NCBI GenBank assembly: GCA_016748015.1
Contig: JAAOMT010000430.1
Coordinates: 158,125-222,124 of the forward strand
Source of the DNA: Geosiphon pyriformis uo1
Lineage: Eukaryota > Fungi > Glomeromycota
Direction: 5' to 3'
Length of the DNA stretch: 64,000 nt
Part shown: in pieces, positions 18,050 through 64,000 of the stretch
Position numbering within the stretch: the stretch's first letter is position 1
Layout of the letters: each line of letters starts with the position of its first letter
Translations under genes and position numbers: made by a program
Notes under the pieces: generated by a model
Database searches by the model: none
What the model saw: only the letters and a program-made list of their open reading frames with translations
What the model was told of the DNA's origin: nothing

Positions 18050-21000
18050 TTTTTTTATTTTTTATTAATGCAATTAATGAATGAAGCTCAACCACTATCT
18101 AGTACACAAAACCAGACTAAGTGACCCAAACTAAATACAACTTACATACTTGCTACATGTGGCTAGCCATTCAGATCAGACAAGACAACACTACACTCCT
18201 ATATAAATCTGCACAATACCACTCAAACCAGAAAAGAAATTACATGGCTTATGATAATCAAAGCTAACAGCAAAAGACTCAATTACACCAAGCAATTTAA
18301 CCATATTATTAAACAAAAATGAAGACACACTATAAGACAGCCTGGAAATCATATTATTATCATGAACCAAATCAATCTACTCTATATCTATTCTATGACC
18401 AGACCTTATCAACTATGTCTTTATGCAATGCAACTTTACAACAAATCTCATATAATTAACAATCTAGGTATTTATCTCTTTCTTATTATTGAAAGCACTA
18501 TAAGCCTCTTCACATTATTCTTTCAACACAAATCTCTTACATATTACAGTATACAATCCAATATCCAAGAAGCATTGAGACAGAACTCACAAAATAACAG
18601 AAGCAGATAAAATAGAACTATTAGCCAAAACAAACCAATGCACAGAAGCTTCAGCCAAGACTTCACTACACACACCAACATTATAAGCATAAGTAAAAGT
18701 GTGATCAGAGAATTCCACCTCATTACACAATAAACACAACATACTAAAGTAATACTTGCTATATATTTTTTTTTTAACTGTTACTGACAGCCACTTGTGC
18801 ACAGCTTTTATCAGGTATGTGTGCAGGTTAGAAGATTTCTGATTAGTAAACTCAATAAGCATATGAGAATTAGGATACCATACCTTCATTGTAGCAATCC
18901 AGTTTACACACCTGATTAGCACATGTGAAACCACATTGCTACCAGGACTAGCTTCCCAACAGGCACAACAAACTGACTGAAAAATATCCCTAACAAAATG
19001 GCAAGCATTACCAAAAACAAGTGTGTTCTTAGCTACCAAAAAGTGCTTGCATACTTCAGCCAACAATAAAAAAAGAGAATAAGCAGTCACATTCACCACC
19101 AAATCTGCCACCACATTACCAAAAACTCCTAAATGTCCTTTAATCTTGACTCAAGCCACACTTAGATTCTTTTTCTTGATTAAATTAAAAATATGATGTC
19201 TCTTAATCCAGCACAGGTTGTGAAAATCAGGCACAACAGAAGACAATTCAGTTATATAAGCATTAATAGCAGCCTGGCTGTTAAGATGCACAGACACTAT
19301 ACTAGAAGATAAGACACACTCTAAGGACAAAGCAACAGTCTGCAACTTGGCCATAGTAAAAGACACAAGACCACAAACTGAAACATTAATACATAGATTC
19401 AAAACCAGAAAATAAGCAGCTGCCTCATTAACAACATCAGCAAAGCCAGCATCTTTCAATAACTCATCAATGAACACTTTAAAGAAATCAGACCAAATCT
19501 TATGCAAACCATTCTTTACAACAGAAAACTTATCAGACCCAAGAATGTCCATATCACATAACTAATTGGGTTTTGCAGAACCAGACAAAAAAAAACCTAA
19601 ACCTAACAAATGCTCAGATGCAATCACAAACCAATAAGAAACAGAACCATGTGGATCCAGTCTCTTCCAATGACAAAAAGTTTTCTAATTCAACACCCCA
19701 TTCTTTTTATCAAAAAGTTGATCACCAAAAGCAATCCCAAAACACCTTAGAGAACAAACAGGATTAAAGCACAAGGACTTTTCAAGGACCAATAACAGTG
19801 AAAAATGACCAGGAATATGAAAAACATTTGAAAGATTGTTTACTAAGAAGAACTCATTATCCAAAAAAATTTTCACCAATTCTGCTAAAAAATTATTTAC
19901 TGGATTAATATGAAGCTTGACAGAAAACTGTAAAGAATTCAAAAGAGTCCAACTCAGAACCTGCAAGTCCAAAAATCTATGACTAAACAAGTGTCCAAAA
20001 ATGTCCAAAGCATTGAAAAAAAAGACCAAAACAGCCATCTTTACTTTAGACTGCACTTGCATAAAAGATTTCAGACTATACAAGGGAGGATAATGTAAAG
20101 CCATATCAGAAAAGTCATTGAACAGACATACTTTTAGCTTGAAATCTTTTCTTATTATAACATCTCACTTGTGACACATATTTGATAAAATAAAACTGAA
20201 TTGAGTTCAGTAATTGATTATAGGCTACAAGACAGCTAACACCAAATAAAAGAATTGCTTATCTGTAATAGTCTTCTAAAGCACAACATTAACAAAAAAA
20301 TAAACATTAGAATGAGTTTTGACAACACTCAGCTTGAACAAGCCATTAATAGACAAAAAAATTTCCAAATAATGATGAGTTTCACCTCTCTTGACAATTG
20401 TAATTGATTGACCACAAATATTCAATGAAGCAATTTTAATTTCTTGATTGATGAGGATAGCCACTGTTTTTTTATTGTTGATAAAAATGTCATTGATTTT
20501 AAAAAACTTAGTGGCAATGTCCAAAGCAAACTGAGTAGATGTCTGACAGTTCCCAATCCAAATAGTGTCATCAACAAATGCATCTACTGCAAAATAAGAA
20601 ATTATCTTACTACTAGTCTCAATTCTGCCTGTTTTAGAAATGAACTTAGTATCAATACAGTACTCATACAAATGTTCATGCCTCTTAACTTTACACAAGA
20701 GTGGATTATAAAAAATCTGCTACAGAAAAGGTGAAAAAAACCTTATTCTAATCTAACTTATCATGTATTCTATAACTATTTGACAAACCAAAATCAGTTA
20801 TCACTCTGTTAACTCTATTTTCATGTATACTACCAAAAAAATTGATAAATCTTTTATACATTTTGACATGCTGCAAGCTATTTTTCAAGTGGTGCCATCC
20901 AACTGAATTATAAGCTTTCTGTATATCTTGTAAGGCCAACCAAATTTCCTTATTCTTTTCAAAAACATCTTCAATCATTGACCCAACAGCAAACACTAAA

Positions 21001-23408
21001 GACTGCATAGATGTACCTCTTAATACTGAAAAGTTATTATCCTGGAAGACATTGAATCTGTTATATGCCAATAAAATACAATCAGACAAAATTTTTGATA
21101 GAATTTTCCTGGCAGTTTTGATTAAAGCTATGGGTTAGGTGTTCATAAGAACCCCATTCCAGTTGTAAGATTTAGGGATTATTGATACCCAAGCCCTCTT
21201 CCATAACACAGACACATCACCAAAAGTCAAACATGTATTTAGCAGCACCAAAAGGCATTCCAACACTATTTTACTACCATGTTTCCATAATTTATTAGGA
21301 ATATCAGATAAGCCAGTGGCTTTATCATCAGGCAGACTACCAACAACTGAAAGCAACTTACTCATACTGACTGCACACATCACACCAGAAAAAGCATCAT
21401 TCCTAATATAGATTAAAGGTATATATTAGTAAGTCCAGTGATTAGATAAAACCGAAAGTACTGAATGTTTCTTTGTCCAACCTTCCATAATCTTATTCAC
21501 ACTCAATTTTATTTCTTTCAGCTCCAAAACCAGTTCATTATTTACCACCAAGTGATCCAGAACCACCTTGCAAAAAGGCCACTCCAAAATGCTTTGAATT
21601 ATACTATCTTTATTGGAACAAAAATTTTCCATATGTCTTGCAACCATCTTTCTAATAGAAGCTTTCTTAGCCAGCCTTGATTTATGCATTTTAAACTTTC
21701 TGTATTCTTTACAAGCTAATGATAAATGTTTGAGAACCACCACAGATTTTACCTCTGAACACATCACATTAGTAAAAGCATGAGCCTTAGTGTCATCCAA
21801 AGTCGACCATATTCTTATGAGATAATTAACTTTAGACATGTCACTAGAGCTAAATTTCCTAACAACTTTGGCAATCAAAAATTCCAAACCAAAAAACTTA
21901 GAAGAGTGTTTATTTCTTAAACACTGAAATTCACTAAACCAATGTCTTAAAAAAACTTTATTAGTTGATTTCACCATTATTCTCTCCAAAATTGCTCACA
22001 TTACCATAGGATTCAGCATCAGAGAATTTGTCAGCAATAATCAAAAGCTTAGCAAAAGAGCAATTTTTAAATTTAGCCCATTTGAAGCTATCAGCATCTT
22101 TGATTTTAATCTTCCAATGATTCTTGTTAGTCTGTTTATGCAAACTATTTAAACAAACATTCAAGAGCCCATCTAAGCCAATTGAAACCAAGACAACATT
22201 GTAATTAATGTCAAAGAAATTGGACACAGAGCAGACCTAATCACCAACAACAGCAGAAGATAAATTCTCATTAACAAAAATGTAATCAATTGTTTTCTCA
22301 ACTTCTCTAGAATTGCTCCATGTGAAAAAGTCTACCAACTAATAGCTGGCAAATGAATTGACCAAACCCAAATTTATACAGAACTTAAAGCTCACACTTT
22401 TTTCAGACCTATTTTTATTAAAATCCCCACTCAAAATCACAAAAGTGCTGAAGTTGACTGTCTTCACAATTAAAGAGTTTACCTCTAAAGCTTGACCAAA
22501 CCTAGTTCCAGAAGAAGCACCAGCATAAAAACCCAAAATTATAATCAAAAGCTTGCCTTTAAATAAAAACTGAACCAAAAAAACTTGACTAAGAACTTCT
22601 TTTATCTTAAACACATAATAAGCCAAAGAATTGTTCATAATTACAGCCACTTCAGCACCAAGGAATTTTTTATTCAAACCAGACATAAAGGCACACACAC
22701 ACTCAAATTTATTAACAATTCAAGACTTGACACAAGACTGCAATTTAGTTTTCATAATAAAAGACACAAAACTACCAGAATTTACATGTCAACAGACAAT
22801 GTTTACTTGTTTTGTAGAAACATTGATACCTCAGACATTACATGTAGCAAATTTCCAGACCAAATTATTTATGAAAGGGAAAGATTAATAAGAAACCAGA
22901 ACTCAAACACAAGATATTCAATTTTGCCAAGACTGAATTGACTGACACTTCCAGGACTACCATTTTTGATTTCAAACCACTTATCTTAGAGATTAGAATC
23001 TTTGAACTGCTTGGACCAAATTTATCAATAGACTTGTCAATAATAACTGAGAGAAAAAAAGCAACAGATGACAACACATCATTTACAGCCATATTCGAAT
23101 CTAAAACCAAAGCCACAAGCACAAAAACAGTCAAAGGAGAAGCACAGAAGAAAGATACCAATAGTGCCAATTCAACAAAACTCAACTTTCTTAAAATGCC
23201 AAAAATCTGGTTAGACAAAAGCTCTAAAAAGTGTTCTAAGAACACCAAACAATCATTTAAACAAGAAATTTCAAGAGAATTGGAATTAAACAGAAGTGGC
23301 TTCACACCCAAAGATGAGCCAGCACCAGAAACAACTAAAAAAAGCATGTGAGAAGAAGCACTACCAACAATCTGAGCCCAAGTTTTACCACCAAAAAAAA
23401 CTGGACAA
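18050..23408 (-). mobile_element. LINE, 3' segment: ORF1 C-terminus, ORF2 (APE endonuclease, RT, RNase H, CCHC), 3' UTR and A-rich tail
   Basis: WKFATCNV start of APE at ~22855, LSGDFN, IDYIFV; RT AFVDDTIW (ORF 20276-20698); RNase H (ORF 19151-19552); CLLCNEVEFSDH (ORF 18587-19114); T-rich tail complement at ~18050-18065. Confidence 0.92.
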
Positions 23409-24452
23409 TGTTATGAGTAAACTTAATAGGGTAGGGAGATAGTAATGTTTGGTGTTCTCAATTATTGGTAAGGCATGTTTCGTGTAATTCTGGTGGCTTA
23501 ATTTTGATTATCAGTCTTTGAAAGTCTTTTTTTCTGGTTGTAAATTTACCCATTGAGTTTTTTGGTTATAAGGCACAGAGTTTTGGTTTTTGTTGATTGC
23601 AACTTTTTATAAAGGTAAGCTTTTTTCTCTGAGCTAACAAGCACAGTTATTAGGGTCTGATATTGTCTTTTTACTCTTTTGGTAAGCTATCAAGATAATG
23701 TTAATATCTAAAAACTTAGGGAGAGCTTTTCTCTTTTACCAGGCTATTATGAAGTCTATTCTCAGACAGTCAATTTTACTATGTTGTTGCTTTACAAGAG
23801 AAAAATAAAAGAAAAAAAAAGAAAATAAAAGAAAAAAAAAAAAATAAAAGAAAAAGATAAATAAGTATTGTTAATTGTCATAATCAAGAGCAATTAGTCC
23901 AAATCATTAATAGTTCAAAGTGGTTATGCTAAAAACATCTGTCCTGAAACAAAGATATGAAACAATAGTTAATTCATGTAAATTCCACAAAGTTTGAGAA
24001 CATGAATTTGTAATTTTGATTTCTTAATAATTGATTTATTTCAGAAGATGAATATAGAATATAATAAATAATGAAAGAGTATGGATATTTGATTCTTGTT
24101 TAGTGGTTTGTATCTATTTGTCCTGTTTTTTTCTATCTTCTACAACTACTTACTTTTATACATTTTTTTGGTTTTATAGAATTGTTTCTGATTGTTTTAT
24201 TATTGCTAACTATTGCTTTGTTATTTCTGTTATTGCTTTGTTTTTCTATGTTATTACTAGTTATCCTATGTTATAACATATTATCTGGTATTATTACATG
24301 TTATTCTGTGTTATTCTATATTATAACACATTATTCTGTACTATCTTAAGTTATAATGCATTATTCAACATTATTGTACACTATTCTGTGTTATGTCATG
24401 TTTTGGTCACGTTTCTTCATAACTTTGGATCAGTTTTTCTACTCAGATAACA
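23409..24452 (-). repeat. 3' LTR of element B
   Basis: Direct repeat of 43205-44248, adjacent to the PPT. Confidence 0.93.
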
Positions 24453-27400
24453 TTATTTCTCTCTTTTAGAATTGAGCTTCTGTGAAATTATATGTATCTG
24501 TTCCTATGTCTTTGTTTGTGTAATGTTTGATGGTCATGTCGAGTATTGTTTTTCGTAGGTCTTCAAACTGTTAATTGGTTATTTGTCCTATGTTGTTAAC
24601 TATTATAGTCTTTATAGATCCATACAATAGTATATTTGAACAATGTTGGAAAGTAACATGTAATCAGTATGCTGCTTTATATATAGGATTAGGTTGCTTC
24701 TTTTTATGAATTTTTCTACTTGTTGCATTGTTTCTTTATTGAAAGTTTTTTGGCTAAAGTCTCTATATGGTATCTTTAAGTCTAATTGTTCACCTATTTT
24801 GTAGAACCAATAAGCTGGAAGAAGTCTTTCTTTCTATTCTTTTGCATTGTCTAGTGTCTATTCTTTTGTTTCAGGAAATCAATCCCATGAGATAAAACTT
24901 CTTTAATTTTTTTGAGCTCAGGGACCAAGTATTTTCTTTTATAAACTTTTTCTCATTCCTCCACTCTTTCTTCAAGCTCCACTCAAGACAATTTAATTTC
25001 TTTTTGTAAAATTCCTTTCTTGGGCAAAGTGTAGGGATAGAAATAGTTAGTTCTAGTTGAACTTACACCTATCTCTTTCTTGCTTCTATCTTTATAGCAT
25101 ATTTTTTTTCTATTGATTGTCACTTCTATTTGAGCAGAAGATTATTGAATTGTATCAAATAGTTGTTTCGAAAGTTGTAGAATTTAATCTGACAAGTTCA
25201 TGTTAAAAGTTCTATTATTTCTTGCTGTTTTTCAAATGCTATATATATTTGAATTTCCTAATTTAATTTGCTGCATGTTGTCTATGTTTTGATGATGATG
25301 ATTGGTCCCAGATCTTGTGGTATATCTTCTGGTCTGATTAATGAAATTTGTATTCTTAGTTGAAGTACTAATAATGATGATTTTTGTTTTACATGATAAA
25401 TTTTTAACCAATTTTCATGTATTACTTTCTTTAAAATCCTGTCTTCCAATCGTAATTTGTAAGCTCTATTTTCTAAAGCTTTGTGTATATGGAATAGACC
25501 ATTCTACTTTGGGTTGAACTTTTCATTCCACTGTTTCTTAGCTTTTGTACGATGTAATAATACTTGGTCTCCAATCTTAAATTTCATTGGTTGTTCTAGT
25601 AGGTAATTATTATGCCTTTCTTTTTGTTGTTCTTAAGTGTAACTAATATTGTCAGCTGCTGTTCTTTAATTGTTTTCCAATGTTTTTATTAGCTGATATG
25701 TTCTTTGGTGTAAAATAGCTTCAAAATTCTTTTTGTTGATTTTTTTGTTGAGTATGATGATATTACTTGTTCAATTGGTAACATAGTTTTTCTTTCATAG
25801 ACTAGTTTGAATGGTATAAACTGAGTCATATTTTGTTTTAATGTTTAGTATGCAAAGAGTACAAAAGATATGAATAAGTCCCATTTTTATTTGTTTTTAT
25901 GACTTATTTTTGCTAGTATTTCACACAGTGTTTGGTTAAATCATTCTACCAGTTTATTTATTTGTGGATGGTATGGTAATAATAAAAATCACTTTATTCT
26001 AAACTGTTGCTTAATTCAGTTAACATATTATTAACAAAATGTGTTCTCTAATCAGATAATAATTCTTTCAGGCATCCATGTCAGCAAATTAGGTCTTGAT
26101 GCACAAATTTGGCTATTGTTTTGGTGTTGGCCACTTGGATTGCTCTGGCTTTTAGCCATTTTGTAAGATAATCTATAGCTACAGCAATATAATGATTTCC
26201 TTTGGATATTATAAAGAAAGAACCAACCAAATTGATTCCAATTTTATCAAATAGATTTCCAACTGGAATGGGTTAAAGTGGTTCTATTGTTCTGGCTCCT
26301 TCTCTTCACTGACATAAATCATAATTAAGCACATATTCAAAAATGTCTTTGTACATTGTTGGCCAATAGTATAAATTTAGAGTTCTTTTAAGAGTGGCAT
26401 CTTTGTTAAAGTGTTTTGCAATTGGATCAGAATACATACTATGTAATATAGTTTCCTTTTCATTGTTTTTTATAACTCGTTGTGGGGTGGGGCAGTTTTA
26501 ATGTTTTTGTCGATATAGTTGATTGTCTTAAATAAAATAATTTCGGGCTTGTTTTCATATAGTACTTTGTTCCTATTGAAATAATATTTCCTTGAAACAT
26601 AGTGTCAATAAGTACTAATGTAGTCATTGATAAGTAAATGTGTCCATGGGTCTGGGATTAGTTTTGTGGTATTCTCAACAAACTGTTGGCATTGGTGTTC
26701 TTAGATTCTTCCTTGTAATAGACTTTAAGTGAAAATTGCTGCAGATAAGTATTTCATCTTGCATATTTTCCTTCCAGTTGTGGGTTATTGAGTAACCAGA
26801 TAAGTTCCTTATAATCTGTATATAGGTCAAATGGTTGACTGAGGTAGTGTTTTCACATTTGTACTGCCCAATAGATGGCGAGGCATTCTAGATCTATTGT
26901 GCTGTAGATTTTTTCAGCTGGATTTGTGCTATAACTAGCATATATAATTGGATGTTCCCTGTTGTCTGGTCTTATTTGCAACAAGACAGCTTCTAGTGTA
27001 TTCTTTGAGGCATCTGTAGTGACAATGAAATGTTTAGTGAAATTGGAGTAGATCAATATTGGAGATATAATTAATTACTGCTTAAGATAGTCAAAGGCTT
27101 TTTGTTGATCTTCTTTCCACAGATATGGCATGTATTTGGACAACAAGTGGTGAAAAAGTTTTGTAATAATTGAAAATATTTTGACGAATTGGCAGTAGTA
27201 TCCTGTCAAATTTAAAAATTCTCATAACTCTTAAAGATTGATTAGGGCTGAAAAATCTTTAACTTTTTAGACTTTGCTTGGATCAAATTTGACTCTGTTT
27301 TTGCTAATCACGTGTTCTAAGAATTTCAACTTGGTTTTTTCAAAGAAACATTTCTCAGGATTGAGTTTTAATCCAGCATTTTGAAGGTGTTCAAAAACTT

Positions 27401-29832: not shown

Positions 29833-30661
29833 TGTTACAGTTTAAGAATTTAGCAAAAAGAATCATAAAAATAATACAAACTATTCAATCATAATATAGC
29901 ACAGTAATAATCTTAGAAAGGTAATGATTAACATAATAGCAAACACCATCTCGCGATAGTGGCAAGCACCAGTTCACAATAGCAGCCAACACCAACTGGT
30001 GATAGCAGCAAGCACCAGGTTGAAATATTAAAAAGAAAGTATTTTCTCGTAGAACTACAAACATGTATATATACAGTAGTTTTAATATTGAGAAAGAATC
30101 AATCAAGTAATAAAAATCATAACTTATCAAGCAATAGATCCAAATTAAATATCCCAAGAAACTTTTAAAAATCAAAAAGAAATGAAAAAGAATATTTAAA
30201 ACGGAACTATCACAACCCAAAGTATTAAGAAACTTACTTGTATTATTTATTGAATGAAACTATCATTCATCAACTGAATCCCTTGGAAGAATAATCCTTG
30301 ATCAAGATTATTCATGTTGTTACTAATTGATAAAAGCTTTATTGTGAGAATTAGAAAAGCGCTAAAGACCATTAACATTCTGTGTTTCTAGATTAGAGAA
30401 ACACATCAGGCAATTGCAAGGATAGCCTCAGAGAAGACCCCAGACAGTGGGTAGATTTCAGTTCAGCCTCTGAGAAGGAGTACATAAACACACACAACAA
30501 TCAAGAATTAAAGAATAACTTACATCGCAACAGTAAAAAGAAAGCCTTCAGTGTAACAGTGACATTATCACACAAATAGAATTGAGGAACTCACGAAAGA
30601 CTGATTGCAATTAAAGCAGGATATCAGCAATTAAATATAACAAGAGAACCATCCCGTAACA
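29833..30661 (+). repeat. 5' LTR of element A
   Basis: TGTTAC..GTAACA; repeated at 39162-39250 and 39725-40515. Confidence 0.95.
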
Positions 30662-30663
30662 TT

Positions 30664-30680
30664 TGGTGAACCCTACGAGG
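30664..30680 (+). promoter_or_regulatory. Primer binding site of element A
   Basis: TGGTGAACCCTACGAGG lies 2 nt after the LTR end; TGG is complementary to tRNA CCA. Confidence 0.85.
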
Positions 30681-33600
30681 AAAGAAAATCAAAAAGGAAA
30701 TAATAATTAGCAATAATTCATTGCTAAAAAGGAAAGACAAAAGTGGCGACAAAAACCCCTAATCTTACTGTTCTTGAATTCTGCCGTGCTATTTACACAC
30801 AAAATCAAAGTGATCTTGGATTACCAGAAGGGTGTTGTCCAGCAGAATCTGCCCTTACTTATTATATCAACGCCAAAATAAATTATCATATAGGAAAGGA
30901 AGAAGAACCACACGACGCAAAACTTGGATTGTATAGAGAATTATCACAATACACTACAAAAGAAGTAGCAGTAATAGCCGCAACTATTATCAAAATCCAT
31001 CGAGAAATTGAGCAATACGCCAACAAAAATTTTCCAATATCCACAGGAAACACTAGGGAATGCGCCAACAAAACCAAAGAAAATTTAGAAACTAATCAGG
31101 AAAGTAACCAGCAAAAACTAGAAACACCAGCTCAAACGCTAAAGAAAACTGTCACTCAATCAATAAAGAAACAACATATTTATTCATCAGAAGATAAATC
31201 ATACCATTTTTCACCAGAAAATAAAATACAAATTCCATTAGGAGCTGCATCATTATCAACATCAACTCCACAAACGCTAAGAACTCCTAGTTATATTGAT
31301 AAAATTAAACAACGTAACTGGGGAGACATACCAATTACAGGAGGATATTCATCACTATTCCAAAACCCTCTTTTTCAGCCAAAATTTAGAATGGGGTTTG
31401 AAAACCGTGAAGAGGAGTCTGAATTAGAATCCGAAAAAGAGACCAGCGAAAAAACAATCACAAGACCAGTCACTAGAACAAGCAGCCAGTCCAAAAACCA
31501 AGAAACTCATGATCAAAAGGAAGAACCGGATATAAGGAAAGCCACCTTTAGGAATGCTCAAGGAAATATCATCCCACCTTCTCTTAGACCAATAAACCCA
31601 CCAGCAGAAAACGGCAATGAAATGACCACACCATACATTGCAAGACTAACAGATTTCTCAGGAGAGGAAGAAGAAACGGACGTGCACACATGGCTCAGAG
31701 AAGCACAAAAAGCCATCCAGGCAAATAACTGGAATGACCAAAGAGCAATTCAAACATTACCTTTCTTCCTGAAAGGCACAGCCGACTTGTGATATCAAAG
31801 CCTGGAAACAAAACCCACGAGCTTTACCAAATTTAAAAATGCACTCCTGGAGTATTTTAGCGACCCAAATGCCGTAATCCAACTACAGAACAAATTCAAT
31901 ACTATCAAGCAAAATACCGGTGAAACTGTCACCCAATACCTTGCTCGATTCAATCGAATTCGCTGTCAGATTGAAGCAATTGAACAAGGATACTACACTG
32001 ATTCTCAGGTTTTAAATCAGTTTATTAGAGGATTAAAAAGCAGCATTTTAGGAAGAGTACGCCCTGCCTACCCTAATTCCTTACCAGAAGCCGTTACGCT
32101 CGCCAGAGCCCTTGAATCAGCTGAGAAAGAAGCTAATCATAGTCAAATGGTTAACATGGTAATGGAGGAAAATAAGACAGAAACATTAGAGAAAAGAGTA
32201 ACACGATTAGGGGAAGAACTCTCTAAGAAAATAGAAAGTTACCTCATCCCGGATCCGAGAAAAAATACATACCAACCACCCCAAAGACACAGCCAGGAAG
32301 TCAGCAACAGTCGAAATAATCACTCGTCGTGCCAGGAATTCAGAACAGAAAAACACGCCTGCCATTTTTGCAAACGCGTAGGACATTTGATTAGTCAATG
32401 TCGAACGTGAATGATGCAGGAAGCACGCGAAAATAATTACTACGTGCCACCCCAAATGCCCAGAAACCAGTACACACCAATACCACGCCAATATCCCACC
32501 ACGTATCAAAATCAAGGAGCTTACCAGCAACAGCCCATGATAGCCAACCCGAATTGGCGTCCCGAGATCCAAAATCAGCCCATGTGGAACCAGAATGCGT
32601 TGGTCCAGAGGAATCCAAACCGCGCCGGAACCAATCAGCAAACCAATCCAAACTACCAAAATTATCAACAAACTTATCTTAATATACTGGAAAACCTGAT
32701 CATCGGAAACAATGATGGTAGAAACATAAACAGAACCAAGAATTCCTCCAAATTGAGCCAGACAATACCACCAGCAGTTGCCACTGAAGATAGCAGCCTC
32801 GCAGCTATTTTTTCTTTTGAATTAGAGGAAAACGAGGCTATGTTCAGTGGAGCAGCATTGGACGAAAAACGCCCAATCACTGCTATGTATACAGAAGCCA
32901 CTGTAAACAATACCCCAATCAAACTTATCTTAGACAGCGGATCCGCTGGAAGCATTATAACGCTTCAACTAGTAAACCAACTGGGTTTCAAAGTTGATCG
33001 TGCCACGACGTCCCAAATCATAACAGCCAATGGAAGTACAAAGCTGCCTTATGGCGAAATCGACTCATTCCCTTTCGAAATTAACGGCATAGTAATATCT
33101 ACAAAAGTATTAGTAATGGACGCTACACAATATCAAGCGTTAGTAGGGAATGACTGGTTAACAAAAGCCAACGCCACCCTAGACTGGACCACCCAAGAGC
33201 TTCTGATCAATTATAATGGCCACCAGGCCAAAATTCCAGCCACCTGTGGCCACTTCCAAAAACCCAGCGCCAACCAAAGACCTACCTTCGAATTTGAGGA
33301 AAATCCAGCACTACCAGTCATCGAAACCTATCAGCTCTCTTGGGCTGATGACCAAAGAACAGGACTACCAGCCATACCAATGTGGACCAGCGAAGAAAGA
33401 TCCAAATAGAACCAGGTAAGTTCACGAAGAAACCACCAGCGACGCAGACCAAAGCTAGAATGCTCGGTTTGCAAGAAGAAACTCTCGTCTATGACTGCGT
33501 GCAGCGCACCGGACGAAGACCCAAGAAACTCCACCCACTACTATTGTAACCGTTGTAACAAAGAAAAATACGGTTACCCAGAAAGACACGGAAAATGGGA

Positions 33601-34183
33601 CGAGGAACCGTGCCTCGCTTGTGGAGAACCATTACCAAGAGGGTGCGACTGGAACGACTTACCAGGCAGAGGAAGAACATGTGATGCAACTTGCCAATAC
33701 ACAATCCTCATCTGTAACTGGGTAAGAGGAGGAACGCTGTTCGAAGCAGCATTCAACAGAGCATTAAAAAGACTACAGCACTACCCACACGACGAGGACG
33801 AGTTGTACAACACCGCACAAGCCAAAGTAAGAGGAGGAACCGCCGAAGAAATATGACATTGGAAAGAGTCAGCCAAAGTAGCCGACAAAGTTGCCAGCTA
33901 CAACATGTTCGACCCAGTGGACGAATTCCAGGACTACTACCAATAACTATGCCCCACTCGACAAGAGCAAGAACAATACCTCGCCCAAATCAACACTTAC
34001 CTCTGCAAAAACTGTCTCATCCCGTGCCAAAGTCAGTGCTGTGAAGAGTGTCAAGACGAAAGGGACTTAGAAAGAAAAATGGAAATTGAGAATCAGCAGT
34101 CTCAAAATCAATCAATAAATCAACAAGACTCACCTGACGGTCCCGAGTCAGAAAAATTTGTAACCTATACTGACCTAGAATAG

Positions 34184-34625
34184 GTGACCGACATCCGATA
34201 CTTTGACAACGGGCACTTAGGAATAATACCCAAAAGAGTCCATCCAACCGACGCCGGATTCGATCTACATTATCCGGAAGACCAATCCACAACGTTACCA
34301 CCCAGGAGCATCACCAAAATCGACCTAAAAATAGCAGTTGAAATTCCGCCAGGAATAATGGTTCAAATGGCGTCGCGATCAAGCCTTGCGAAAAAAGGAA
34401 TAAGCATTCAAGGAGGAGTAATTGACTCCGGATACACTGGAAATTTGATGGTTTTGCTACAGAACAATTCAGAAAAGCCTTATACTATTGAATCTAAGGA
34501 AAAGATTGCACAAGCAATTTTCCTACTATTGGTAAAAATTGGGAAATTCGTGCCAGTAGAAAATCATGAGGAATTGTCACAAACAACGAAAGGAACTTTT
34601 GGTTTCGGATTGACAGGAAAAGGAA
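34184..34625 (+). other. dut: Trimeric dUTPase domain within pol of element A (also B ~28480-28860 and D ~50790-51215)
   Basis: All five dUTPase motifs are present in order: DAGFDL, SRSSLA, GVIDSGYTG, KIAQAI and (R>K)GTFGFGLTG. Confidence 0.92.
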
Positions 34626-35593
34626 TTGAAGCGAATTTCGCTGAAACAATAGAGGAAAAAGGTGAAGTAATTAAAAATGAGCGGTCCATCACGCTCCTAC
34701 CATATGGAAAATCAGAAATAAGAATAAAAAGTACAATTAAAGAAAAAGACCTAATATTTGAGCCCTACCCAAAAACTTGCCAACAGTTTCTCATAGGACT
34801 TACTAACCTTTTTATTCCAGCTGATAAAGCTCAATGGATAAAAATTCCTATTGCAAACACCACAGAAGAACCCGTCTACATTTCGGAAGATACCATCATT
34901 GGATACCTCGGAACGGAGCTAGAAAACGCGTCAACACCACAAGAAATTCTAAATTTCCCAGAAATCGCCCTCTACTGTGAACTCACTTCAATAAATTGGC
35001 AACAACCAGTAGAATGCTATCAATTTACGCCAGAAGAATTGGCCAAATTAAACATTGGAACAATGGATCCTGACCAACAGCGACAATTAAAAGCATTAAT
35101 TTTAAAATACTCTGATATATTTTCAAGAAATGGCGAATTTGAAAGAACCAACTTGGTTCAACACCAAATCCCCACTGGAGACGCCAGATCTGAAAAACAA
35201 CATGCTTACCATGTCCCACCAATGGAGCATAATTTTATCAGAGAAGAAGTCCAAAGCATGTTGGAAAAAGGAATAATACAACCATCAATGAGCCCATGGT
35301 CCTCACCAGTTGTTTTAGTAAGGAAAAAGAACGGAAAAATTAGATTTTGCGTCGACTATCGCAAACTAAACAGCAAAACAACCAAAGACTCATACCCAAT
35401 ACCGTTAATTGACGAAATCTTCGACGTTTTTGGAGGAGCAAAATGGTTTTCTACACTGGACTTGACCAGTGGGTACTGGCAAGTGGAAATGGACCCAAAG
35501 GACAGGCATAAAACAGCATTCACAACACAAAATAGCAATTATGAGTTCAATGTAATGCCATTTGGATTAACAANNNNNNNNNNNNNNNNNNNN

Positions 35594-36200
35594 CACCAGC
35601 GACGCAGACCAAAGCTAGAATGCTCGGTTTGCAAGAAGAAACTCTCGTCTATGACTGCGTGCAGCGCACCGGACGAAGACCCAAGAAACTCCACCCACTA
35701 CTATTGTAACCGTTGTAACAAAGAAAAATACGGTTACCCAGAAAGACACGGAAAATGGGACGAGGAACCGTGCCTCGCTTGTGGAGAACCATTACCAAGA
35801 GGGTGCGACTGGAACGACTTACCAGGCAGAGGAAGAACATGTGATGCAACTTGCCAATACACAATCCTCATCTGTAACTGGGTAAGAGGAGGAACGCTGT
35901 TCGAAGCAGCATTCAACAGAGCATTAAAAAGACTACAGCACTACCCACACGACGAGGACGAGTTGTACAACACCGCACAAGCCAAAGTAAGAGGAGGAAC
36001 CGCCGAAGAAATATGACATTGGAAAGAGTCAGCCAAAGTAGCCGACAAAGTTGCCAGCTACAACATGTTCGACCCAGTGGACGAATTCCAGGACTACTAC
36101 CAATAACTATGCCCCACTCGACAAGAGCAAGAACAATACCTCGCCCAAATCAACACTTACCTCTGCAAAAACTGTCTCATCCCGTGCCAAAGTCAGTGCT
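35594..36200 (+). repeat. Gap-flanked duplicate of 33434-34040 (assembly artefact occupying the place of the RT palm)
   Basis: Identical by eye and bounded by N runs on both sides. Confidence 0.85.
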
Positions 36201-36857
36201 NNNNNNNNNNNNNNNNNNNNTGAAAAATTTTCCAGTACCTCGAAACGTCTCAGAAGTTAGAAGCTTTTTAGGACTCGCATCTTACTACCGCCGCTTTGTA
36301 GAAAACTTTTCAAACATCGCCAAACCCCTTAATTACCTACTATCTAAAAATGTGAAGTTTGAATGGACTGAAGCACAACAAAAAGCTTTTGAGTACCTTA
36401 GACAAAAGCTCATTGAATCACCAATAATGATCTATCTGAATTTCAACAAGAAATTCATTTTGGCCACAGATGCCTCTGGAACTGGACTTGGAGCCATTCT
36501 GTCACAAAAAGATGATAATGGAAGAGAATGTGTAATCACTTATGCCAGCAGAAGTCTCAGTACAGCAGAACAAAACTACGCAGCACATGAGCTTGAATGC
36601 TTAGCAGTAGTCTGAAGTTGTGTTCACTTTGACACATATTTACGGTACCAACCCTTTAAGATTACGACAGATCATAGAGGTCTGGTCTGGTTAAATAACA
36701 AGAAAGCGCTAAAAGGAAAATACGCCAGATGGTCACAAACATTAGCACCATACGATTATATTATCAAATACAAAGAAGGTACCAAAAATGCTAATGCCGA
36801 CTGTTTGTTAAGAATGAGACACACATAAAAATCACCAACCCACCCGCCACAACAACA

Positions 36858-38024
36858 ATGAACAACCATCTTTACAAAAACCTCAGCCAATACTTGGAAA
36901 CACTACAAATAGACGAAAAAATGCCAGTAAAAGAGCTAATTAAGCTCCAAAAATTAGCAAAACACTATTTCATCCAAAATCACATACTTTATTACCGGAA
37001 TTGACAAAATCCAGATAATCCATTAAGAGTTATAACCACGAATGAAAAAGAAACTATCTTATTTAACATGCACTCAGATATTCATTCAGACCACTTTGGA
37101 AAAACAGCAACCATCCAATGTGCAACTAGTCATTACTATTGGCCAAAAATAAGTTCAGACATAATTCAATACATAAAAAATTGTGACCCATGCCAATGAA
37201 AAAGAGGAGCAAAAACAACGGAATTATTAAGACCAATAAAAGTTGAACAGCCATTTGACAGAATCGGAATTGATTTAGTTGGACCCTTACTAATAACAAC
37301 AAGAAACAACCGTTATATTGCAGTAGCCATGGACTATCTCACCAAATGGCCAGAAGCTAGAGCTATTAAAACAGCTGATGCTATTTCCGTAGCTCAATTC
37401 GTACATGAAGACTTAATTTGCCAACATAGATGTCCACAAGAATTGCTATCAGATCAAGGCACACACTTTGTAAACAGCACCTTAAAAGAACTTAGCCAAA
37501 AATTTGGAATCAAGCGACTACTGTCATCACCATACTACCCTCAAACAAATGGATTAGTTGAAAGATTTAATTGCACATTATGCGAATCACTGGTGAAAAT
37601 TAGTAACAAACATGAAAAAGAATGGGATTTGTTCATACCAGCAGTACTACTAGCATATAGAACAGTAAAACAAGATACTACACAATTCACACCGTTCGAA
37701 CTAGTTTATGGAAGAAAAGCTACATTACCCGTTGAACTTACTATTCCAATTTATCCGAGTGACACTATCACGGAAGCAACATTCCAGGAAACACTACTTA
37801 GAAGAACATATGAATTAATGGGAACTTTAGAAAACAAAAGAAGAAAAGCAGCACAAAATATTGAACAATCACAAGAACAACAAAAAGTGAGACATGATAA
37901 CCAGTTACCAGATAATATAATTAGCTACAAAATTGGAGATAAAGTATTGTTGCATCATACAAAAATGGAAAAACAGTGGAGTGGAAAATTTGATCACAAG
38001 TGGGATGGACCATTTTATATTCAC
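36858..38024 (+). pseudogene. Element A integrase, separate ATG-initiated ORF (C-terminal tail displaced to 39271-39371)
   Basis: H..H..CDPC zinc finger, GIDLVGP, LLSDQGTHF, QTNGLVERFN and KWDGPF, all in frame with ATG 36858. Confidence 0.9.
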
Positions 38025-38044: not shown

Positions 38045-38719
38045 AAGGAAAATACGCCAGATGGTCACAAACATTAGCACCATACGATTATATTATCAAA
38101 TACAAAGAAGGTACCAAAAATGCTAATGCCGACTGTTTGTTAAGAATGAGACACACATAAAAATCACCAACCCACCCGCCACAACAACAATGAACAACCA
38201 CCTTTACAAAAACCTCAGCCAATACTTGGAAACACTACAAATAGACGAAGAAATGCCAGTAAAAGAGCTAATTAAGCTCCAAAAATTAGCAAAACACTAT
38301 TTCATCCAAAATCACATACTTTATTACCGGAATTGACAAAATCCAGATAATCCATTAAGAGTTATAACTACGGATGAAAAAGAAACTATCTTATTTAACA
38401 TGCACTCAGATATTCATTCAGGCCACTTTGGAAAAACAGCAACCATCCAACGTGCAACTAGCCATTACTATTGGCCAAAAATGAGCTCAGACATAATCCA
38501 ATACATAAGAAATTGTGACCCATGCCAACGAAGAGGAGGAGCAAAAACAACGGAATTATTAAGACCAATAAAAGTTGGACAGTCATTTGACAGAATCGGA
38601 ATTGATTTAGTTGGACCCTTACCAATAACAACAAGAAACAACTGTTATATTGCAGTAGCCATGGACTATCTCACCAAATGGCCAGAAGCTAGAGCTATTA
38701 AAACAGCTGATGCTATTTC
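38045..38719 (+). repeat. Gap-flanked paralogous copy of 36713-37387 (RNase H end and integrase start)
   Basis: Colinear, differs by transitions and is bounded by N runs. Confidence 0.85.
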
Positions 38720-38739
38720 NNNNNNNNNNNNNNNNNNNN

Positions 38740-39704
38740 AATAAGTGAATTAACACCAGACACATTTAGCAACTTGAAAACGAAATTTCCAATTAATTAC
38801 TGTTATTATCAACTAGGAAAGCACTTGAACATACAAACATTATACTCAAAAGACTCAACTAGAGTGTTTGACAAAACAACTATCCAACTATTAGAACCTT
38901 TCATTGGAAAAACCAACACTACATTCCATTCAAAAACAGTTTACAGAATTTTCAAAGCATTTGAAAACTGTTACAAATTATTGTTGGACCCAACCATGAA
39001 CATAATAACAACCAACAGTATTGGACGACTTACCAACTCACAATTTCAAGAATTACAACAACAAATTAATAACACAGTATTGAACCACTATAGTAACTTA
39101 GAATTTAATGAAGAAATTAACTTCGATTTTGACGGAGCTCAATCTTGAAAGGAGGGGATAATGTTATGGTTTAAGAATTTAGCAAAAAGAATCATAAAAA
39201 TAATACAAACTATTCAATCATAATATAGCACAGTAATAATCTTAGAAAGGNNNNNNNNNNNNNNNNNNNNAAACACCCAGAATTGGAACACAATTACCTT
39301 TAATTCTACCAGAACAAATTCCATGAGATTTAGAACCAATAGTTTTAATTGAACATTATTCGAAAAGATAATTAATCTTAGATCACAGCAAAAATGATTT
39401 AACAACCATAAAAATGCATGCAAAAGATTCCAAAATAACAGTCAAAATTAAAACAATGATACTTATTCCAGAAAACATCAACAATATAACTCAACAATTA
39501 ATTGAAAGCTTACAACAATTAAAATCCGATCTAGAAATCACAGTTAATAGCTCCAAAATAACATACATAAAAAGAACAATAGAAAATCCAAAAACAAGAA
39601 AAGAACATAATTTCGAACCATATAATATTGCCAAATATAACACCAAATTTATTAGCAAAGTTATTGAAAAATTAGAGATAGCATTGGGCAATACATTAAT
39701 AATG
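38740..39704 (+). CDS. Element A ORF3 of unknown function; pieces mis-ordered by assembly (N-half 39456-39704, C-half 38740-39148)
   Basis: MILIPENINNITQQLIESLQQ...FPINYCYY...DFDGAQS*; homologous to ORF3 in B, C, D and G; both pieces are free of stops. Confidence 0.75.
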
Positions 39705-42700
39705 NNNNNNNNNNNNNNNNNNNNTAATCTTAGAAAGGTAATGATTAACATAGTAGCAAACACCATCTCGTGATAGTGGCAAGCACCAGTTCACAATAGC
39801 AGCCAACACCAACTGGTGATAGCAGCAAGCACCAGGTTGAAATATCAAAAAGAAAGTATTTTCTCATAGAACTACAAACATGTATATATACAGTAGTTTT
39901 AATATTGGGAAAGAATCAATCAAGTAATAAAAATCATAACTTATCAAGCAATAGATCCAATTTTATCCAACAAACTCCACTTTAAATCATACTTTCAAAT
40001 TAAATATCCCAAGAAACCTTTAAAATCAAAAAGAAATGAAAAAGAATATTTAAAACAAAACTATCACAACCCAAAGTATTAAGAAACTTACTTGTATTAT
40101 TTATTGAATGAAACTATAATTCATCAACTGAATCCCTTGGAAGAATAATCCTTGATCAAGATTATTCACGTTGTTACTAATTGATAAAAGCTTTATTGTG
40201 AGAATTAGAAAAGCACTAAAGACCATTAACATTCTGTGTTTCTAGATTAGAGAAACACATCAGGCAATTGCAAGAATAGCCTCAGAGAAGACCTCAGACA
40301 GTGGGTAGATTTCAGTTCAGCCTTTGAGAAGGAGTACATAAACACACACAACAATCAAGAATTAAAGAATAACTTACATCACAACAGTAAAAAGAAAGCC
40401 TTCAGTGTAACAGTGACATTATCACACAAATAGAATTGAGGAACTCACGAAAGACTGATTGCAATTAAAGCGGGATATCAGCAATTAAATATAACAAGAG
40501 AAACATCCCGTAACACCACCCATAAAACTTGATAGGTTTCTATGGTTGGTGATGATGTTGTGTCTTTAAATTTAATTAGTGGTTCCTCTGAGCTTTGGAC
40601 TTTAAAGTGTCCATATATAGCCAGAACTCAGACATATTATCCATTAAAGGTGATCTGTAATTCTTGTGTGTTCCAGTTAAAAATGGCATGAGCTTTGGCC
40701 AACCAGTTGTTTCTGATGAGAGCTTGATATTGCATGGCTTTCATGATTAGAATTTTTGTAAGAATTTGGGTTCTGTTGATTTCAAAAGAGAAGTTATCGA
40801 TTTCTCTGATTGGGGTTTTGGTATTGCCATCTGTAGTAATAATTCAGGTGGTTGTGGCATAATCTACTTGGTAATCTAATTAATCCATGAATTGTTTTGT
40901 TATTATACTGTCTGCTGATTTGCTATCAAGAATTAATTTAATGTCTATGTTTCTAACTTTAGTATTAGTATACAGGGCCATAATTGGTTTGTCCTAATTT
41001 ATGATGGCTCTATTGAAAAGGCTATTTGTATTCAGATTGTCAATGTTAAAGAGAAAGATAGCAGCAAAGATGGTATCTTTAGTGATAGTAGTGAGTAAAA
41101 TAGTATTGTTAGTTTGATTTCACCTTGAAAGATTGAAAGTTTCTTTTACAGCCTTTCTTTCTAAAGATATAGAGCTATAAAAATCCTGGTTTTTAATAAG
41201 ACCAAGATATAAGGCTTGGTTAGAGTATCTGGTTGGTGCTGGTTGAGATGAGACATTACTACAATTTAAAGATTGTGATAGTATACTGTTAGTTGGCATC
41301 TGATATTGCTGGAGTTCCTCCATCCTTGGTTGTAATTAATTGCCCAATGTCTAAGTTGGTTATTAACAGGGTTTTAGTACTGGAGTGTTGCTTGAGCCAT
41401 TGGCTACAATAATCGGTAATGGTTTTGAGGTGGTTGCTGGGTATACTGAATTTGTTGTGAGTATTGAAACAGTTAATATTAAAATGTAGAGTATTGGAAT
41501 ACCATGTTTTGAGAGTATCTCAGTTGCTAATATTGATTTTTTTGATTTTGGTCTATTACTTTCTTATGGCAGTTCCAGACAATATGTTCAGGTTTCTGAC
41601 AATAGTAACAATTGCAGAGATTGAATCTCTAAGGTTGTTGTTGTTGCTAATAATTTTGTTGTTGTTGGTATCTGTTGTTATTACTGTCTTTTTGTTGTGG
41701 TGGCTGGTAGGGTTCTATGGTACTGGCTAAAAATCTTTCAATTTTCTGAGTTAATTTCTTACTTAATTGAGTTATTTTTGTGTTGATATCAGATGTTCTA
41801 TTAATAGCCAGATTAACAGCTTGAGTATAATTAGCCTCTTGTTCTGCTGACTCAAAGTCACAAGCAAGAATAACTGCCTCTTGTAGATTTGTTGGATGGT
41901 AGAGTTTTACAGATTGGAGGAGGCTGCTCTTTAATCTTTTGACAAATTGATTAAGGATTTGCACCACAAAGTAGTAATCCCTTTTAATGGTCTGAATTTG
42001 ACAAAAAATTTGGTTGAATTATCCAAGATAAATGGTCACTGCTTTGTGATTTTTTTGTTTTATGATACTGAACTGATTTTGTAATCTGATGAGAGTGTTG
42101 AAATCACAAAAGTATTACAGAAAGGCAAGTTTAAAGGTGGCAAAGTCAGTTGATTTTTCTGCAAGGCTTTAATATCATGAGTCTATAATTCTAGTCAAAA
42201 AAAATAGCAATGCTTGAATGGCCCTATCATTATTCTAATTGTTGGTAATGATGGTTTTCTTGGCTTTTGCAATTCATATATATGCATTGTCTTCTTTACT
42301 AGAAAATTTTTCTAATTTGGCAATATCTTGGTAAGCCATAATCTGAAGGATAGATAGAGTCTTACTGTTTGATGCTGAAAGGTTTGGTGTTTGCATGCTA
42401 GGGTGTTTTTCTGGTGCTAATTCTGGTTGTTTCCTTTTGTTAATTTTCCCAATAGGCTGGAGAATAACTGGTTTCTCAGAGAGAGTAGTTGATAATTTGG
42501 TCAAGAGTTGGGTTGGTGGTGGTTCCCTCATCAACATATTTCTATCTGTTTTGTTAATTGTTGGGATGAGATTTCCAAACAACAATCCATATTCTTCTAA
42601 TGAGTTGGTCCAATTGTGTTGATTCTAGGAGTGTAGATTTTTAGGAGTTTGTGGTGTTTCTGACTGGGTTTTCAGAGATGGGTTGAATACCATTCTACTT

Positions 42701-43204: not shown

Positions 43205-44248
43205 TGTTACAGATAAACTTGGTGGGATAAGAAGATGGTAATGTTTAGTGCTCTCAATTATTAGTAAGGTGTGTTTCATGTAATTCTGGTGACTTAATCT
43301 TGATTATTAGTCTCTAAAGGTCTTTTTTTCTGGTTGTGAATTTACCTATTGAATTCTTTGGTTATAAGACACAGAGTTTTGGTTTTTATTAATTGCAACT
43401 TCTTATAAAGGTGAACTTTTTTCTCCAAGTTAACAAGCACAGTTATTATGGTCTGACATTGTCTTTTCACCCTTTTGGTAAGCTATCAAGATAATGTTAA
43501 TATCCAAAAACCTAGGAAAAGCTTCTTTTTTTTACCAGGCTATCATAAAGTCTATTCCCAAACAGTTGATTTTACTATATTGCTGCTCTACAAGAGAAAA
43601 ATAAAAGAAAGAAAAAGAAAATAAAAGAAAAGAAAGAAAATAAAAGAAAAAGATAAATTAGTATTGTCAATTACCATAATCAAGAGCAATTGATCTAAAT
43701 CATTAATAGTTTGAAGCAGTTATACTAAGAGCATTTGTTCTAGAATAAAGGTATGAAACAATGATTAATTCATGTAAATTTCACAAAGTTTGAGAACATA
43801 AATTTGTGATTTTGATTTCTTAATAATTGATTTATTTCAGAAAATGAATATGAAATATAATAAATAATGAAAGAGTATGAATATTTGATTCTTATTTAGT
43901 GGTTTATATTTATCTGTCCTGTCTTTTTCTATCTTCTACAACTACTTGCTTTTATACATTCTTTTGGTTTTACAGGATTGCTTTTGATTGTTTCATTATT
44001 GTTAACTATTGCTTTGTTTTTTCTGTTATTGCTTTATTTTTCTATATTATTACTAGTTATCTTATATTATAATACGTTATCTAATGTTATTATATGTTAT
44101 TCTGTATTATCCTACATTATAACGTATTATTTTGTGCTATCCTAAGTTATAATGTGTTATCCAATATTATTTTGTGCTATTCTGTGTTATGTTACATTCT
44201 GGTCATGTTTTTTTATAATTTCAGATCGGTTTTTTTATTCAGATAACA
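43205..44248 (-). repeat. 5' LTR of element B
   Basis: Direct repeat of 23409-24452, adjacent to the PBS. Confidence 0.93.
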
Positions 44249-52800: not shown

Positions 52801-53046
52801 TAGAACTCTAACACTAAAACACTTAGCTATCTATTGGGCTGTCATCAAATGGAAAAATACTTGAGTCAAAAGTTTGATGTGTACACTGATCACAAAGGAT
52901 TGACTTCAATCCAGAAACAAAAATTCGGAGACAATCACCATGTCAGATGAAAAATAGAACTTTCACTATTCAATTATACAGTACATTATAAAAAGAGAAA
53001 AGACAATGAAAATGCTAATAGATTGTTGCAAATGAGACAAATCTAA
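46895..53046 (+). pseudogene. Element D gag-pol (GTG start; capsid, PR, Cys-rich domain, dUTPase, RT, RNase H)
   Basis: ORF fragments 46895-52864 are colinear with element A; RT YLDN (from YLDD); stop TAA at 53044-53046. Confidence 0.9.
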
Positions 53047-53075
53047 AACATTTCAACTCAAAAATATAACAAAAA

Positions 53076-54456
53076 ATGAATATACAAAAATACCAACAAC
53101 TACAACATTATATAAATACTTAATTGTTCAAGAAAAAATTATCTCAAAAGAAACAAAAAGACATAAAACAACAATTTAAATATTTTATCAACCATCAAAA
53201 TATACTTTACTGAAAGAACAAAAAAAATCCAGATCAACCAACCAGAGTAATTACAGAATCAGAAAAGGAGACAATATTATTCAATATGCACTCAGATCTA
53301 ACAACAGGATATTTTCATAAAGAAGCAACCATTAAAAAAACCAGAAAAAGATACTATTGGCCATCAATGTATCCAGACATTATCCAATACATTCAAAATT
53401 GTGATGCTTGTCAAAGAAGAGGTGGAACAAAACCCAATGAACCATTAAAACCAATCAAAGTGGAACAACTATTTGATCAAATTAGAATTGATCTAGTCGG
53501 ACCATTAACAATAACCAACAGAGACAACAGATACATTGCAGTAGTCATAGACTATCTGACAAAATGACCAGAAGCAAAAGCAATTCAAAGAGCAGATACA
53601 GAATTTATTGCCAAATTTGTTCATTAAAATTTGATTTATTAACATGGATGTCCAAAATAACTATTATCAGATCAAGGAACTTACTTTATGAATAGAACAT
53701 TGACAGAATTAAGTCAAAGATTTGGAATCAAAAGACCATTGTCATCACCATATCATCCACAAATTAATGGATTAGTAGAAAGATTCAATAGAACACTGTA
53801 TGAAGCAATTGTTAAGATTAGTCAAGAAAACCAGGATGAATAGAATTTGTTTATACCATCAGTATTATTTGCTTATTGGACAATGAAGCAAGACATTACA
53901 CAAGCAACACTATTTGAATTAGTATACAATAGAACAGCAACATTACCAGTTGAGATAGAAGTCAATATTTATCCAGTAGAACCAATAACTGAAGATAATT
54001 CAAGAAACGTTGCTAAGAAAAACATATGACTTGATGGAAACTTTAAAAAACAAGTGACAAAGAGCAGCTGATAATATTCAAAAGTCACAAGAAAAACAAA
54101 AAAAAAGACATGATAACCAACTACTAGATAAACCAGTTGAATTTAAGATTGGAGACAAAATACTTTTACATCGCACCAAAGCGGAAAAACAATAGAGTGA
54201 AAAATTCAACCCCAAATGAAACAGACCATTTCACATAGAAGAAATTCTTAGAAATGAAGCTTATAAATTAAGATGGAACAATAAAATCTTAGCCAAAGCA
54301 GCATATGGTGATCAACTGAAACAATATCACCAGATAACATTATCATTCACCAATAACATTTGACAACTGGAAGTACAAAGAATACTAGTTCAACCAAATG
54401 AGATTCCATAAGATCTGGAACCAATTATAATTATTGGACCAAACACATCAAATTAA
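53076..54456 (+). pseudogene. Element D integrase, separate ORF
   Basis: ATG 53076 is in frame with ORF 53286 (MHSD..CDAC, IDLVGP); SDQG, NGLVERFN and a GPF-like motif follow. Confidence 0.88.
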
Positions 54457-63665: not shown

Positions 63666-64000
63666 TTAGGGATAGGGATAGGGTTAGGGTTAGGATTAGG
63701 GATAGGGTTAGGGATAGGGTTAGGGTTAGGGTTAGGGTTAGGGTTAGGGTTAGGGTTAGGGTTAGGGTTAGGGTTAGGGTTAGGGTTAGGGTTAGGGTTA
63801 GGGTTAGGGTTAGGGTTAGGGTTAGGGTTAGGGTTAGGGTTAGGGTTAGGGTTAGGGTTAGGGTTAGGGTTAGGGTTAGGGTTAGGGTTAGGGTTAGGGT
63901 TAGGGTTAGGGTTAGGGTTAGGGTTAGGGTTAGGGTTAGGGATAGGGATAGGGATAGGGATAGGGATAGGGTTAGGGTTAGGGTTAGGGTTAGGGTTAGA
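63666..64000 (+). repeat. Telomeric repeat array (TTAGGG)n, ~56 units, with ATAGGG variants
   Basis: Read directly; the G-rich strand runs 5'->3' toward the window end, as expected for a chromosome terminus. Confidence 0.98.

Follow-up and report, generated by a model that had tools for sequence, protein, structure and literature searches.

The integrase of canonical Ty3/Gypsy elements is released from the Pol polyprotein by cleavage. For foamy viruses, Pol was described to be translated from a spliced mRNA as a PR-RT-IN precursor, free IN not being packaged (PMC3705302, in part). LINE-1 carries a 63-nt spacer between ORF1 and ORF2 (PMC5972666), for SART1 a structure downstream of the stop was described (PMC5972666, PMC10275272), and the caulimovirus TAV drives reinitiation over distances of a few to 700 nt (PMC5972666), whereas for coupling of the TURBS type the two codons must lie no more than about 20-30 nt apart (PMC10275272). 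The elements reported here locate to a 64-kb stretch of DNA (the window, meaning the whole stretch analysed), in which three families, A, D and B, possess a Pol frame ending with TAA four codons past the conserved RNase H tail, followed by an integrase with its own ATG. In family A, the Pol stop (36826..36828, plus strand), read directly from the sequence, precedes a 29-nt, A/C-rich and ATG-free spacer without stable fold (36829..36857, plus strand; z +1.2) and the integrase ORF (36858..38024, plus strand), which comprises an H2C2 zinc finger, the rve core and a GPY/F-type motif and contains two TGA breaks before its 3' end enters an N gap. The junction of D (53044..53078, plus strand) consists of TAA at 53044-46, a 29-nt spacer and the integrase ATG at 53076, from where the integrase extends, with decay, to about 54456, while that of B (26645..26660, minus strand) consists of TAA at 26660-58, a 10-nt spacer and the integrase ATG at 26647. 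RNase H upstream and integrase downstream of the junction were identified by Pfam for A and by tblastn for B and D, and the integrase frame is offset relative to Pol by -1 in A and D and by +1 in B. The stops, ATGs, spacer lengths and offsets that the first-pass annotation had claimed proved exact upon re-reading of the sequence. The paralogous copy of the junction which it had counted as further support does not serve as such, as this near-duplicate (38045..38719, plus strand; stop 38158-60, ATG 38190-92) lies between N gaps, is 97% identical to 36713-37387 of A and hence is not independent, being either another copy or a scaffolding duplicate.

Element A opens with a 5' LTR (29908..30661, plus strand, start approximate), which ends in CA and shares 93% identity with the 3' LTR (39725..40515, plus strand), the start of which is hidden by the N gap 39705-39724. 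Directly inside the 5' LTR, a TGG-initial sequence (30664..30681, plus strand) is found which is a candidate PBS, to which no tRNA was matched. A single frame with scattered decay stops encodes gag (Ty3 capsid), aspartic protease and a cysteine-rich region (30728..33853, plus strand; PF03732, PF19259, PF13975), followed in the gag frame by dUTPase and the N-terminal part of RT (34184..35572, plus strand; PF00692, PF00078), interrupted by an N gap. Next comes the C-terminal part of RT with RNase H (36223..36825, plus strand; PF17917, PF17919), the end of which lies four residues past the tail motif. Over the 1615 codons from gag through RT one frame is kept, broken by six scattered stops. The dUTPase locates between protease and RT in all three families (34184-34620 in A; 50786 and 28913 in the others), and the cysteine-rich region preceding it in A has no Pfam match. 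The 3' part of A consists of pieces whose order is scrambled relative to D and B, which is a scaffolding effect: a gap-bounded piece (39271..39704, plus strand), in which the integrase ends (stop near 39371) and a downstream ORF begins, belongs, according to the order in D and B, before 38741, where the C-terminal part of the downstream ORF begins (38741..39148, plus strand). Duplications of 100% identity flanking 20-N gaps, together with shuffled pieces, were likewise recognised as scaffolding artefacts at 1835-2908, 33434-36200 and 38045-39724. Elsewhere the window holds a 555-codon ORF (7899-9566), presumably kinase-like judging from a motif by eye, decayed minus-strand ORFs resembling a non-LTR element by eye (18587-22719) and a G-rich 12/18-nt tandem array at the window end (63580-64000). 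Two related elements contain degenerate tandem arrays of 10-nt units in their 3' regions (24231-24402, 44027-44198), and the related metagenome locus L016 has a 10-nt array at the corresponding place.

Of 578 stretches confirmed in a metagenome scan, 80 were retained, from 6 of the 64 collection parts. Pol and integrase proved to be split in all ten in-group loci whose contig includes both RT/RNase H and the beginning of the integrase (L001, L005, L007, L008, L009, L012, L016, L020, L021 and L022). In these loci long, largely intact open frames are found on both sides of the junction, the spacers measure -8, 30, 62, 63, 74, 89, 110, 163, 365 and 727 nt, and the offsets are 0, 1 and 2. L035 is split as well and stands outside this count, having a long branch and an uncertain start. 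L016 is a complete element with LTRs of 96% identity, and for L007, L009, L016 and the window Pfam identified the order gag, protease, RT, RNase H, integrase. Distant loci with the tail motif (n=24) are fused in frame in 19 cases, the other five being broken and having no ATG at the integrase-start column, while viral contigs yielded three weak unrelated loci only. In L007:2-4438 and L016:3361-6702, Pol was observed to run about 300-570 residues beyond RNase H, a part for which no Pfam match was obtained. In the RT tree (112 of 233 rows), an outgroup of 44 rows, most of them fused, is set apart with an SH-aLRT of 97, and fused rows also sit at the base of the remaining group; the grouping of the split loci received SH-aLRT 94 in a quick tree and 43/97 in a careful tree, where it is mixed with three fused rows, and the AU test did not reject a single origin of the split (p 0.32), which may thus have arisen once or repeatedly. 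The outgroup matches are all Gypsy-type by Pfam or source name, the trees being built without named reference lineages.

On the protein level, a search with the A integrase, limited to lengths of 213-681 aa, yielded 790 matches, and among the matches listed 103 of the 120 nearest integrases have Met at the profile column of the window ATG, a count which is favoured by the length limit and by the profile having been built from the same matches. Of these 120, 101 begin at that Met, two have it and are called upstream, and 17 begin later; those listed with a name are from Rhizophagus, and the close relatives that bear a name belong to the arbuscular mycorrhizal fungi. As length limit and profile reuse favour the Met result, longer proteins were searched too; 38 of the best 120 listed were put in the tree, six of which fall among the stand-alone integrases. 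Rhizophagus and Cetraspora (Glomeromycota) contribute five of the six as public gene models, of which four have no RNase H tail at the join and one crosses unrelated sequence, and near-identical fused models join Pol and integrase at differing points; judged from the protein sequences, this is what predicted introns would produce. P0128, a lone metagenome protein with the integrase fused in frame via a very short linker, is either a real exception or an error, the fused relative apparently being real. Among 120 RT-RNase H homologues listed, 54 have the integrase in the same protein, 40 end at most 13 residues past the tail motif, seven end within 14-40 residues, 18 are longer without integrase and one is truncated, while some of these ends may be contig ends. 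A C-terminal hydrophobic EP-x-I-x-I motif, exemplified by window 39330-39371, was noted in 25 of 70 stand-alone integrases as compared to three of 104 long proteins tested; it is also found in the fused P0132 and is a possible docking strand. The separate integrase ORF which the first-pass annotation claimed for this lineage is hence upheld well beyond the window, by metagenome loci and protein homologues alike, with stop and ATG conserved and spacer length variable across the relatives. The integrase is thus very probably a separate gene located after the Pol stop.

A split that arose in dead copies through decay or misassembly was considered, as the window copies are rich in stops derived from C-to-T and G-to-A changes and contain seven N gaps. 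In the aligned coding stretches, in-frame TAA relative to CAA plus TAA amounts to 1/108 in A, 6/56 in D and 10/53 in B, and the product of the odds for three independent CAA-to-TAA decays is 1.9e-4, an indel being required besides. Given that the same split is present in intact elements from unrelated assemblies and that DNA run X1, with 4056 contigs aligned to 36221-38024, showed no indel at >=5% (143 variant places, 40 of them listed), this explanation is hardly credible. The idea of an AUGA overlap, with a TGA within the start of A and D as true Pol stop and the TAA as decay, was judged unlikely because the TAA is common to all three families. A further explanation assumes a minor Pol-integrase fusion, formed family by family by frameshift, readthrough or alternative splicing, to be the packaged form. 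It was examined with 14 junctions, i.e., the ten loci, L004 (RT off contig) and window A, B and D counted as three families. The integrase frame overlaps Pol in A, B and L022, being open upstream of the Pol stop over 31 nt in A and 14 nt in B, and in D it is shut upstream only by a TAA which is itself possibly decay. Moreover, P0128 is a fusion, the two domains are joined in five public gene models, and L012 would need just one readthrough to bring both frames together. Against this stands that in 11/14 junctions (L012 among them) the integrase frame does not open until past the Pol stop, and in 10/14 it is shut after the stop even with readthrough. Slippery heptamers, absent from the window copies, are confined to L001 and L016, two junctions without frame overlap, and with offsets of 0, 1 and 2 no constant offset combined with a slippery or leaky site was found; an in-frame GT-AG fusion intron is impossible in 4/14 junctions, and the others share neither donor nor acceptor position. 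As, in addition, near-identical gene models join differently and drop the RNase H tail, and the conserved Met would be left unexplained, a packaged minor fusion is considered very unlikely. The differing offsets had been put forward by the first-pass annotation as an argument against one shared frameshift: the related loci do speak against recoding, while the window families alone are insufficient in this respect and leave room for a frameshift in A and B. The outcomes it had named as speaking against its reading, namely a sense codon (CAA/CGA) at the stop with the integrase in frame, a shared slippery site or a shared fusion intron, are absent from the intact relatives, the exceptions being the fused P0128 and the readthrough-able L012.

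The sequence surrounding the integrase start was characterised next to the frames. At position -3, a purine is found in 20/24 integrase starts as compared to 57% of other ATGs (p 0.006) and A in 16/24 as compared to 38% (p 0.004), whereby these p values are optimistic as the loci are related, and the count leaves out L032, L046 and L065, which have no ATG at the estimated column. Spacers of up to 200 nt are ATG-free in 10/11 cases and hold one ATG versus 6.9, but GTA (0 versus 6.9) and CAT (5 versus 12.9) are low too, rendering the ATG scarcity weak and non-specific; in the last 50 nt before the start, seven ATGs stand against 14.6. The 727-nt spacer of L016 contains 12 ATGs and a TATA-like run, and the 365-nt spacer of L001 contains seven ATGs and a 67-codon ORF (L001:2548-2751), which was noted to be basic and to have a good start context; the final 82-110 nt of the long spacers are ATG-free. 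The window spacers are G-poor and unfolded, the plus strand of these elements being A/C-rich throughout. In nine relatives (L007 at 4464-4500, L003, L004, L006, L011, L018, L024, L028 and L032), a stem, an 11-nt bulge, a 6-bp stem and a CANNGUGA loop form an element ending 3-17 nt 5' of the integrase AUG. Its covariation, for which structure and model were both derived from the same nine sequences, comprises 93% paired cells and 8/10 pairs changed on both sides, was matched by 0/500 shuffles and had no slid version close to it, while single-sequence folding is unremarkable. A search of the nine loci against Rfam gave no match, the motif pattern gave 0 matches in viral contigs, and with the model no signal beyond noise was obtained for the window; the stem-loop is absent from 26/35 loci searched and from the other subgroups. 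The view that the nine stem-loop loci are RT-less Ginger-like elements was rejected, as L007 and L016 are full gag-pol elements with a Pol that is long-tailed after RNase H. Downstream of the integrase, a further ORF of about 145 aa (ORF3, e.g., L005:2284-2712) begins 32-150 nt past the integrase in 11 in-group loci and in 0/50 outside loci, whereas five in-group loci with more than 500 nt downstream do not have it; 9/10 integrase-ORF3 spacers are ATG-free. The ORF3 family comprises 501 representatives at 50% identity, for which no Pfam family was found at E 0.01 and atlas matches were uninformative, and its predicted model is all-helical and confident (pLDDT 93), with no Foldseek match at E 0.001 (best VIA Z 5.1). 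The window families share a downstream ORF with weak similarity to ORF3: its C-terminal part in A scores 13.7 bits against the ORF3 profile with an hhalign probability of 17%, and a six-frame scan gave no ORF3 match at 38741..39148.

Among the routes by which the integrase might be translated, for which the first-pass annotation had named termination-reinitiation, internal initiation and subgenomic RNA without choosing between them, reinitiation on the full-length polycistronic RNA is tentatively preferred, its probability being rated slightly below even on the grounds of sequence features. Ribosomes would finish Pol, resume scanning and restart at the next good AUG of the same RNA, whereby the restart would follow the resumed scanning of LINE-1 ORF2 or caulimoviruses rather than the short-range TURBS type. 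The latter does not fit the junction distances, which are of TURBS type in 5/14 junctions only (A, B, D, L009 and L022), the other nine being 62-727 nt; UGGGA, the TURBS motif upstream of the stop, was found within 120 nt of the stop in 1/14 junctions and in none of the window. Reinitiation is preferred because of the L022 start overlapping the Pol stop, the mostly short ATG-free spacers, the layout being repeated at ORF3, the RNA structure between stop and start, and the precedents in LINE-1, SART1 and caulimoviruses. The long ATG-bearing spacers of L016 and L001, hard to cross by simple scanning, speak against it, and no reinitiation factor was identified, ORF3 having no family or fold match. 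Subgenomic RNAs, arising from an internal promoter or from leader splicing to an acceptor before the AUG, account better for these long spacers and would leave spacer length and frame free; the good start context, the ATG-free ends of the long spacers and the TATA-like run in L016 agree with them. Acceptor-like signals are few, being present in 3/19 loci as compared to 162/1603 control ATGs (10%) and in none of the window, whereby the branch pattern used in the search is perhaps too strict; furthermore, start and stop overlap in L022, and a stem-loop abutting the AUG would impede scanning from a nearby cap. Foamy virus Pol (PMC3705302) and the hepadnavirus genes are precedents for the production of integrase and downstream ORFs from subgenomic RNAs, which is the main alternative to reinitiation and is rated somewhat unlikely, whereby subgroups may differ. 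Run X2, the kind of which was guessed, provided six aligned contigs containing no sense-strand splice into the integrase, which is uninformative either way. Three single-contig X2 joints (36306-36396, 36499-36652 and 36687-36843), absent from the deep X1, skip parts that are GT..AG on the minus strand and probably represent antisense transcripts with splicing across RNase H, the last of the three extending over the Pol stop. In an X2 contig of 2908 nt, the integrase region (37182) is connected to a match at 39119-39148 without GT-AG ends, the source being a deleted copy or an antisense transcript.

Internal ribosome entry at the spacer, i.e., at unstructured A/C-rich RNA in the window and at a folded element in the L007 subgroup, would be in line with the G-poor, unfolded window spacers and with the conservation and covariation of a structure that ends 3-17 nt short of the AUG. 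As no feature is common to the subgroups, A/C-richness is a property of the whole plus strand, the B spacer measures just 10 nt and L022 has no spacer, this route is distinctly unlikely. Returning to reinitiation, a stem-loop before the AUG would help or regulate the restart in one subgroup. The integrase, not being covalently linked to Gag-Pol, might be packaged by cis binding to its own RNA or to RT, a guess by analogy, and the split would keep its amount below that of Gag-Pol. The furthest-reaching scheme, likewise drawn by analogy, envisages a polycistronic fungal LTR lineage in which integrase and ORF3 would be reinitiated and the stem-loop would drive both the restart and integrase-genome packaging, as hepadnavirus epsilon does; in its entirety it is deemed unlikely.

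Within this Gypsy-type group the split is widespread and apparently undescribed: in the full texts searched, no description of a Gypsy lineage with the integrase in its own ORF was found, nor do the available portions of PMC10508981, PMC5911963, PMC5751038, 10.1101/2021.03.30.436303, PMC2774666 and PMC2836005 contain one. As Gypsy and retroviral integrases are held to enter the particle within Gag-Pol, a diverse and successful lineage without this link would reveal another packaging route and another way of dosing the enzyme. The junctions would moreover provide natural cases of eukaryotic downstream-ORF translation, with reporter-sized spacers ranging from overlap to 700 nt. Annotation is affected as well: deposited entries present these integrase ORFs as free 'DDE transposases' or connect them to Pol through predicted introns, and a screen for rve alone, like the Ginger count in PMC5751038, could mistake them for DNA transposons.

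The elements resemble Ginger1 DNA transposons, in which a Gypsy-like integrase of about 400 aa with zinc finger, DDE core and GPY/F is translated alone, whereas Ginger1 is bounded by TIRs instead of LTRs, lacks RT and carries a protease domain at the C-terminus (PMC2836005). The present elements differ from Ginger1 in having RT upstream and direct repeats, and the Ulp1/peptidase-bearing P0168 and P0204 branch apart. Plant Tat elements, with their additional RNase H in a separate ORF, are similar in having one Gypsy enzyme domain that the pol ORF does not encode; there, an accessory duplicate domain is placed upstream, while here the essential integrase is concerned (PMC10508981). LINE-1 and SART1 likewise carry a second ORF past a stop on a retroelement RNA (PMC5972666, PMC10275272), but are non-LTR elements in which the ORF1/ORF2 junction is concerned and for which, in the sections available, reinitiation is demonstrated rather than suggested from sequence. 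Caulimoviruses resemble the present elements in their close-set ORFs on one retroelement RNA and their distance-tolerant reinitiation (PMC5972666, in excerpt), but possess neither integrase nor LTRs, while no TAV-like protein was found here. In foamy viruses, an enzyme made apart from Gag also needs non-covalent packaging, which there involves RNA elements and the integrase domain (PMC3705302); the whole of Pol is separate in that case, here the integrase alone. Closest are the Ty3/Gypsy elements (Metaviridae), with which LTRs, a PBS-like site, the order capsid, protease, RT, RNase H and integrase, and the GPY/F-type motif are shared, while the integrase with its own AUG outside the Pol frame, the dUTPase of the window families and the extra downstream ORFs differ. 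As their integrase is not part of the Pol frame, the elements are classed as a variant of Ty3/Gypsy rather than as canonical members.
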